From the NCBI RefSeq assembly GCF_036507355.1, contig NZ_AP027877.1: a stretch of DNA of 64,000 nt. The stretch is one strand, 5' to 3'. Numbering within the stretch: position 1 is the stretch's first letter; every line of letters starts with the position of its first letter. Below the pieces are notes generated by a model. It did no database searches, was not told where the DNA came from, and saw nothing but the letters and a program-made list of their open reading frames with translations. The stretch comes from Escherichia coli (GTDB lineage Bacteria > Pseudomonadota > Gammaproteobacteria > Enterobacterales > Enterobacteriaceae). The position numbers were made by a program, and so were the translations under genes. This document shows, one piece after another, positions 25,591 to 27,131 of the stretch.

Positions 25591-27131
25591 AACACTCAAA
25601 GAAAGAGGTAATTTTAGAATGAAATTATCTGTGATGATTATTAATACACTGCAGAGAAATAAAAAACAATCTGAAGCATGCTCTGAAACATCCTACTCTG
25701 TCACTCTAATGATGGCACCTTGCTCTTCTTATAAAGAAGGGAACAATTAAGAATATTAAATTTTCAAACTTTCATCAACTTCACATCAAGAAATTAAAAA
25801 ATTTAAACATTAATCTAAATAATAAAAACCTGATCACATAATCGGGTACGATTTTATCCGATAACTATAATGCTATAACTCTGGGAAATGGTTGGAATAC
25901 ACCGCTGGGTGCCATCTCTTTTTACGCTGCCCGAGCGAGTAGTAAGTTAAATAATGATACCAGACACGAAGGTACGAGCTATCAGGTCGCCTATAATAAA
26001 TATCTAGTACAAACAGCCACTCGATTTAGCGTGGCCGCCTGGCGTTATGCTTCGCAGGATTACAGGACATTCAGCGACCATCTTTACGAAAATGATAAAC
26101 ACTATCATCAGAGTGATTATGATGATTTTTATGATATTGGCAGAAAAAATAGCCTTTCTGCCAATATTATGCAACCTTTATCCAATAATCTGGGAAATGT
26201 ATCATTAAGTGCGCTTTGGCGGAATTACTGGGGGCGAAGTGGAAATGCTAAAGATTACCAATTCAGTTACTCCAATAACTGGCAACACATTAGTTATACT
26301 TTCTCTGCCAGCCAATCTTATGATGAAAATAATAAAGAAGAGGAGCGTTTTAATCTGTTTATCTCCATTCCTTTCTACTGGGGGGATGATATTGCCAAAA
26401 CACGTCACCAAATTAACTTATCGAATTCGACCTCATTTTCCAAAGATGGCTATTCCTCCAACAATACTGGAATTACTGGCATAGCCGGTGAACATGATCA
26501 GTTAAATTATGGTATATATGTTAATCAGCAACAACAAAATAATGATACCTCGCTTGGTACGAATTTAAGCTGGAGAACTCCCATCGCCATAATAGATGGC
26601 AGCTATAGTCATTCTAAAAACGCCTGGCAAAGTGGTGGAAGTATTAGTAGTGGATTAGTTGTCTGGCCCGGTGGTATTAATATCACTAACCAGTTATCCG
26701 ATACATTTGCAATTCTGGATGCGCCTGGGTTAGAAGGTGCACATATTAATGGACAAAAATACAATCGAACAAACAGCAAAGGCCAGGTTGTTTACGACCT
26801 GATAATACCTCATCGTGAAAACCATCTGGTACTTGATATAGCAAACAGTGAAAGTGAAACAGAATTGCAGGGCAATCGTCAAATTATTGCACCTTACCGT
26901 GGAGCAGTTTCTTATGTGCAGTTTACAACTGACCAACGTAAGCCCTGGTATATACAGGCACTGCGTCCCGATGGTTCGCCATTAACCTTTGGCTATGACG
27001 TACTGGATCTCCAGGAAAATAATATTGGAGTCGTTGGCCAGGGTAGTCGCCTTTTTATTCGCGTAGATGAAATTCCGGTGATGCTGCCAACTTACTGATT
27101 TAGTGTATGATGGTGTTTTTGAGGTGCTCCA

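Follow-up and report, generated by a model that had tools for sequence, protein, structure and literature searches.

The 43-codon open reading frame (ORF) at positions 25619-25750 (+ strand) of a 64,000-nucleotide stretch of Escherichia coli DNA, referred to here as the window, is very probably a fortuitous, unconstrained frame in an AT-rich, non-coding spacer of O-island 1 (OI-1). The ORF lies within a spacer that is ancestral at this site, its frame has been lost in most strains, and its variation looks neutral. The original prediction had offered three explanations, i.e., a small protein co-transcribed with an effector-like gene immediately upstream, a relic of a deleted gene, or chance in AT-rich DNA. 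Of these, it is chance that the evidence supports, through the loss of the frame, the neutral pattern of variation, and the frequency with which ORFs of this length arise in shuffled sequence.

As a description of the DNA the prediction held up well. A 43-codon frame with the translation MKLSVMIINTLQRNKKQSEACSETSYSVTLMMAPCSSYKEGNN is present on the + strand; it is open in the window and stop-polymorphic across E. coli. Its ATG lies 29 bp past the last base of the stop codon of the upstream gene (25590), as had been claimed. The Shine-Dalgarno (SD)-like motif AGAGG was found at 25604-25608 (+), with a spacing to the ATG of 10 nt (25609-25618) rather than the "about 9" originally given. In the predicted RNA fold, an AU-rich hairpin spans 25606-25630, and its stem takes in the bases of AGAGG at 25606-25608 as well as the UG of the AUG. 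No terminator was predicted between the stop codon upstream and the ATG, so that the ORF would be present on any transcript of the upstream gene.

The locus is E. coli OI-1, between rpsT and nhaR; its neighbours are ileS, ribF, yaaY and rpsT at one end, nhaR and nhaA at the other. For O157:H7, OI-1 (z0020-z0025) has been described as a putative fimbrial island, with the motility repressor FmrA among its products (PMC10877973, PMC9387321). The gene map that we used combines these two reviews with the Sakai locus tags; the names ECS0023 and ECS0024 that appear in PMC3175480 were considered as Sakai genes and rejected, since they are names of sRNA candidates. The effector-like gene of the original prediction is espX1 (24169-25590, +), which encodes 473 aa, is annotated by RefSeq, is intact in the window and gives a weak pentapeptide-repeat match. 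Elsewhere (L001, L003, L004, L007 and L009) espX1 was frameshifted, in O121, O111, H7 and E275a strains, or split by IS1, in BL21, indicating that this gene is decaying repeatedly in E. coli.

The gene order in O157:H7 (L002) is espX1, a 301-bp spacer, the genes for the fimbrial subunit (ECs_0024), chaperone (ECs_0023) and usher (ECs_0022), and a gene of 319 aa. The O157:H7 spacer extends from the espX1 stop (L002 position 7031) to the start of the fimbrial protein (7333), and the region of the ORF lies inside it. In the window, the ancestral non-coding spacer occupies 25591-25847 (+) and is about 28% GC (28% G+C for 25591-25880); in O157:H7 it continues for a further 45 nt to the start of the subunit gene. 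The window, O121, O111, BL21 and most other E. coli lack the genes for subunit and chaperone, together with the 5' portion of the usher gene. Compared with O157:H7, the junction of this deletion falls at 25847/25848 (a point without strand), and it was identical in all nine deleted-type copies sampled (the window, L001 and L003-L009), which points to a single old deletion that most E. coli have kept. The fimbrial operon is still whole in a minority of strains, among them O157:H7 and some ETEC.

An usher remnant had been placed after the ORF, and this was confirmed both by a Pfam Usher match (1.6e-62 at 26031-27095) and by the RefSeq annotation, which starts at about 25845. The pseudogene (25845-27952, +) lacks its N-terminus and is interrupted by IS1 at 27078-27845, flanked by an 8-bp target duplication (GAAATTCC); this IS1 junction was found in none of 5,426 complete E. 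coli genomes. Given this absence, and the Shigella sonnei label that the exact 43-aa peptide carries in public sets, the window may come from a Shigella sonnei-like genome. The usher remnant is followed by the last gene of the operon, i.e., the 319-aa gene (27965-28924, +), which is intact in the window, shares 97.5% identity with the copy in O157:H7 PV15-279 (L017 2327-3287), and whose product matched no Pfam family. Its probable counterpart in EDL933 is the z0020/z0021 (fmrA) region. The Sakai version is a 961-nt frameshifted pseudogene (ECs_0019), and the tags 0020 and 0021 are missing. Because the Sakai copy is frameshifted, the published motility repressor FmrA (z0021) probably represents one fragment of the 319-aa gene.

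This arrangement bears directly on the proposal that the ORF is a relic, i.e., a pseudogene fragment left by the deletion or decay of a gene at the site. It is true that the ORF adjoins a large deletion and the usher pseudogene. However, it ends 97 nt upstream of the junction, wholly within the ancestral spacer, and the same sequence serves, unchanged, as the intergenic DNA of strains whose operon is complete; the ORF is therefore neither a product nor a relic of the deletion. The peptide also had no longer relative among 5.8 billion proteins, and showed no similarity to a longer protein or to a Pfam family. Thus, neither overlap with the deletion nor likeness to a missing or longer gene was observed. 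A search of a plasmid collection in distant mode found no relatives of the spacer outside Escherichia, and no related DNA outside Escherichia chromosomes. All nine hits were to Escherichia (eight records classed as plasmids, 0.4-4.9 Mb in size, and one 1.4-kb fragment), and, as most were of this size, the search is uninformative about relatives elsewhere. Taken with the position of the ORF, these results make a relic extremely unlikely.

The original prediction had named conservation of the frame in homologous islands as a check on a protein-coding role. When a 321-nt query covering the spacer was compared with 5,426 complete E. coli genomes, 3,632 matched, with identities of 80-100% that fell below 90% in only four genomes. 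Thirteen copies from across this range of identity were aligned with the window (n = 14). The 43-codon frame was open in five of these 14 copies (the window, L001, L004, L010 and L011), and truncated in the other nine. In all nine truncated copies codon 17 was TAA, whereas it was CAA in the copies with an open frame. Further stops occurred at codon 10 (TAA, in O157:H7), at codon 16 (TAA, in L009) and at codons 21 and 23 (TGA and TAA, in L012), and altogether the alignment contained at least five distinct changes creating a stop within the ORF. The ATG, on the other hand, was kept in every copy covering that position.

To count the alleles at codon 17 we used 55-nt queries centred on that site with 28-nt megablast seeds, so that every seed must span the allele. 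The open (CAA) allele was present in 542 of the 3,632 carrier genomes (15%), in agreement with the 550 genomes that were at least 95% identical to the window with the 321-nt query. The BL21-type TAA allele was found in 2,086 carriers and the O157-type TAA allele in 965; these are separate lower bounds that are not to be summed, as intermediate haplotypes may fall in both. We also searched one genome per species with an invariant 30-mer from the spacer. This yielded three contigs from metagenome-assembled genomes (MAGs), all with E. coli-like sequence, and no other Escherichia species, so that the polarity of CAA versus TAA is not given by an outgroup. In two of these contigs the frame likewise ends after codon 16, while the third ends short of the ORF. 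We infer that TAA is the older allele. Within the alignment of 14 copies, BL21-type haplotypes (L003, L005 and L007-L009) carried an 8-bp indel just after the stop codon of the ORF (in the region 25749-25756), and L004 and L005 resembled recombinants, within the spacer, between window-type and BL21-type haplotypes.

The ribosome-binding site was not conserved either. AGAGG occurred in three of the 14 copies and AGAAG in the remaining 11, and only two of the five open-frame copies (the window and L001) had AGAGG. Nor was there any sign of purifying selection in the ORF, either as an excess of synonymous changes or as a bias toward third positions. Variable sites were distributed among codon positions 1, 2 and 3 in the ratio 10/6/10, and nucleotide diversity (pi) was 0.070 at both position 1 and position 3. 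The 28 distinct single-base variants comprised 6 synonymous, 18 non-synonymous and 4 nonsense changes, giving a synonymous fraction of 21%, where 20.9% would be expected for this sequence under neutrality. Overall, pi in the ORF (0.058) matched that at third codon positions of espX1 (0.059), and the ORF had more variable sites (26/132) than the adjacent espX1 coding sequence (70/628; p = 0.0095). The five open-frame copies taken alone differed by about four synonymous and about four non-synonymous changes, a ratio that could hint at mild constraint, although counts this low allow no conclusion.

Database searches gave a consistent picture. The 43-aa peptide matched no Pfam family at E <= 1, and among the 5.8 billion proteins searched it hit only seven clusters, 78-98% identical and all representing alleles of the same locus. 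Neither a domain nor a hydrophobic helix was recognized in it, and homologues were confined to the locus. The deposited peptides differed by at least 14 amino-acid replacements, and included frameshifted variants of 64 and 73 aa. Its 90%-identity cluster also lists a 1,324-aa EccCa protein from Streptomyces, evidently a database artefact. The claim that the ORF is unannotated was correct for RefSeq/PGAP, which did not call it in any record inspected, but not for public protein sets, where the exact peptide has been deposited as "hypothetical protein" (E. coli) and as "Uncharacterised protein" (Shigella sonnei), in both cases from automated callers.

We also compared the length of the ORF with chance expectation, using 5,000 dinucleotide-preserving shuffles of the 290-nt spacer (28% GC). 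An ATG-initiated ORF of at least 43 codons was obtained in 13% of the shuffled sequences when both strands were considered, and in 7% on the + strand. In the 64-kb window itself, there were 99 ATG-initiated ORFs of 43-60 codons in the six frames, four of which had an SD-like 4-mer upstream. An ORF of this length is therefore no more than chance gives in such DNA. Taken together, the results indicate that the public "hypothetical protein" entries for the peptide are probably over-calls.

These results can be set against the idea of a genuine lineage-restricted small protein, perhaps of recent origin, made from the espX1 transcript in strains that combine AGAGG with CAA. Such a protein would be consistent with the invariant ATG, with AGAGG 10 nt upstream of it in the window and L001, with the 542 genomes that carry the open allele, with the predictions of automated callers, and with the lack of a predicted terminator upstream. 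However, in about 85% of carriers the frame is closed by a stop no later than codon 17; synonymous changes are as frequent as neutrality predicts, and codon positions 1 and 3 are equally diverse; the SD is missing in three of the five open copies; in the predicted fold the 3' end of the SD and the UG of the AUG are buried in a stem; and the peptide is devoid of domain, hydrophobic helix or homologue. Judged from its sequence, the ORF failed every gene criterion that was tested. The co-transcribed small protein of the original prediction fails on the lack of frame conservation among homologous islands, and we give very little credence to its lineage-restricted form. An even more specific version, in which a single change from TAA to CAA, combined with the AGAGG variant, gave rise to a lineage-restricted micropeptide of very recent origin translated from the espX1 transcript, i.e., de novo gene birth within the species, appears exceedingly improbable. 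The haplotype family involved in such a birth would comprise STEC O121-/O111-like strains and Shigella sonnei-like strains.

Our preferred explanation remains a chance frame. In outline, one haplotype family carries CAA in place of the commoner TAA at codon 17, and this difference allows a 16-codon frame to continue to 43 codons. The DNA concerned is the 3' flank of espX1 and, ancestrally, the upstream region of the z0024-z0022 chaperone-usher operon.

The least variable block of the spacer was not the ORF but the segment downstream of it, at 25751-25847 (+). Only 5 of 89 sites were variable in this block, compared with 26 of 132 in the ORF (p = 0.003), and its pi of 0.014 made it about four times less diverse than the ORF (0.058). 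Its variability did not differ significantly from that of the adjacent espX1 coding sequence (p = 0.14). The block contains a hairpin (25828-25847) and a weak sigma-70-like site (TTAAAA-18-AATAAT, 25794-25823; 9/12 bases) that is conserved in O157:H7 (L002 7235-7264), although the number of sigma-70-like sites in the spacer was not above that in shuffled sequences. In the intact operon of O157:H7 the spacer lies directly upstream of the major subunit gene, and this position suggests that 25751-25847 is the upstream regulatory region, containing the promoter, of the fimbrial operon. By the same positional argument, even after the deletion it may continue to act as the promoter region for the 319-aa, fmrA-like gene and for the usher remnant. 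We also considered a phase switch of the pap or fim type, which was rejected because the region has a single GATC (25832), where a pap-type switch has two, and no flanking inverted repeats, only short AT-rich ones.

The same block raises the alternative that the spacer encodes a regulatory RNA, either an sRNA derived from the 3' untranslated region of espX1 or a leader of the fimbrial operon. Two hairpins (25722-25740 and 25828-25847) are conserved, and 25751-25847 is less variable than the ORF, both of which speak for this. However, the region 25591-25880 matched no covariance model in Rfam 15 at E <= 1, the z-score of the predicted fold was only -1.67, the T-tract at the terminator-like hairpin is found only in the deleted arrangement, and, as noted above, the lower variability of the block is not significant relative to the neighboring coding DNA. 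On balance we regard a regulatory RNA as very unlikely, and the fortuitous frame in non-coding DNA as the reading to be retained.

The outcome is thus a clean negative that in itself matters little: the ORF is an ordinary chance frame, not the genetic feature that had been proposed, and the analysis strikes one candidate small gene off. Its by-products are modestly useful. The spacer is identified as the DNA that ancestrally lay upstream of the OI-1 fimbrial operon, and the old deletion in most E. coli is seen to have removed the fimbrial structural genes while sparing the spacer and the fmrA-like last gene. Whether the motility-repressor gene continues to be expressed from the retained spacer is a question that follows from this.

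At the level of the locus, the closest known system is OI-1 of O157:H7 (z0020-z0025/ECs0019-ECs0025), in which espX1 is followed by a chaperone-usher operon ending in fmrA. The window has the same site, the same genes and the same order, and the two spacers are 94% identical over 288 nt. The window differs in the loss of the fimbrial subunit and chaperone genes along with the 5' portion of the usher gene, and in having an IS1 element in the usher remnant. The small frame is only 9 codons long in O157:H7, which has TAA at codons 10 and 17, as opposed to 43 codons in the window.

At the level of the ORF, two kinds of system are relevant. Intergenic small proteins of E. coli whose existence has been validated by tagging or ribosome profiling in general have frames that stay open from strain to strain. 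The ORF resembles them in size range, in having an ATG preceded by an SD-like motif, and in lying just downstream of a larger gene. Unlike them, it does not keep its frame across strains. The better match is with the spurious short "hypothetical protein" calls that automated gene finders make in AT-rich intergenic DNA. Like these, the ORF is short, restricted to a single locus in records of E. coli and Shigella sonnei, without a domain and stop-polymorphic, and it is called by some pipelines but not by PGAP; between the ORF and such spurious calls, nothing material differs.
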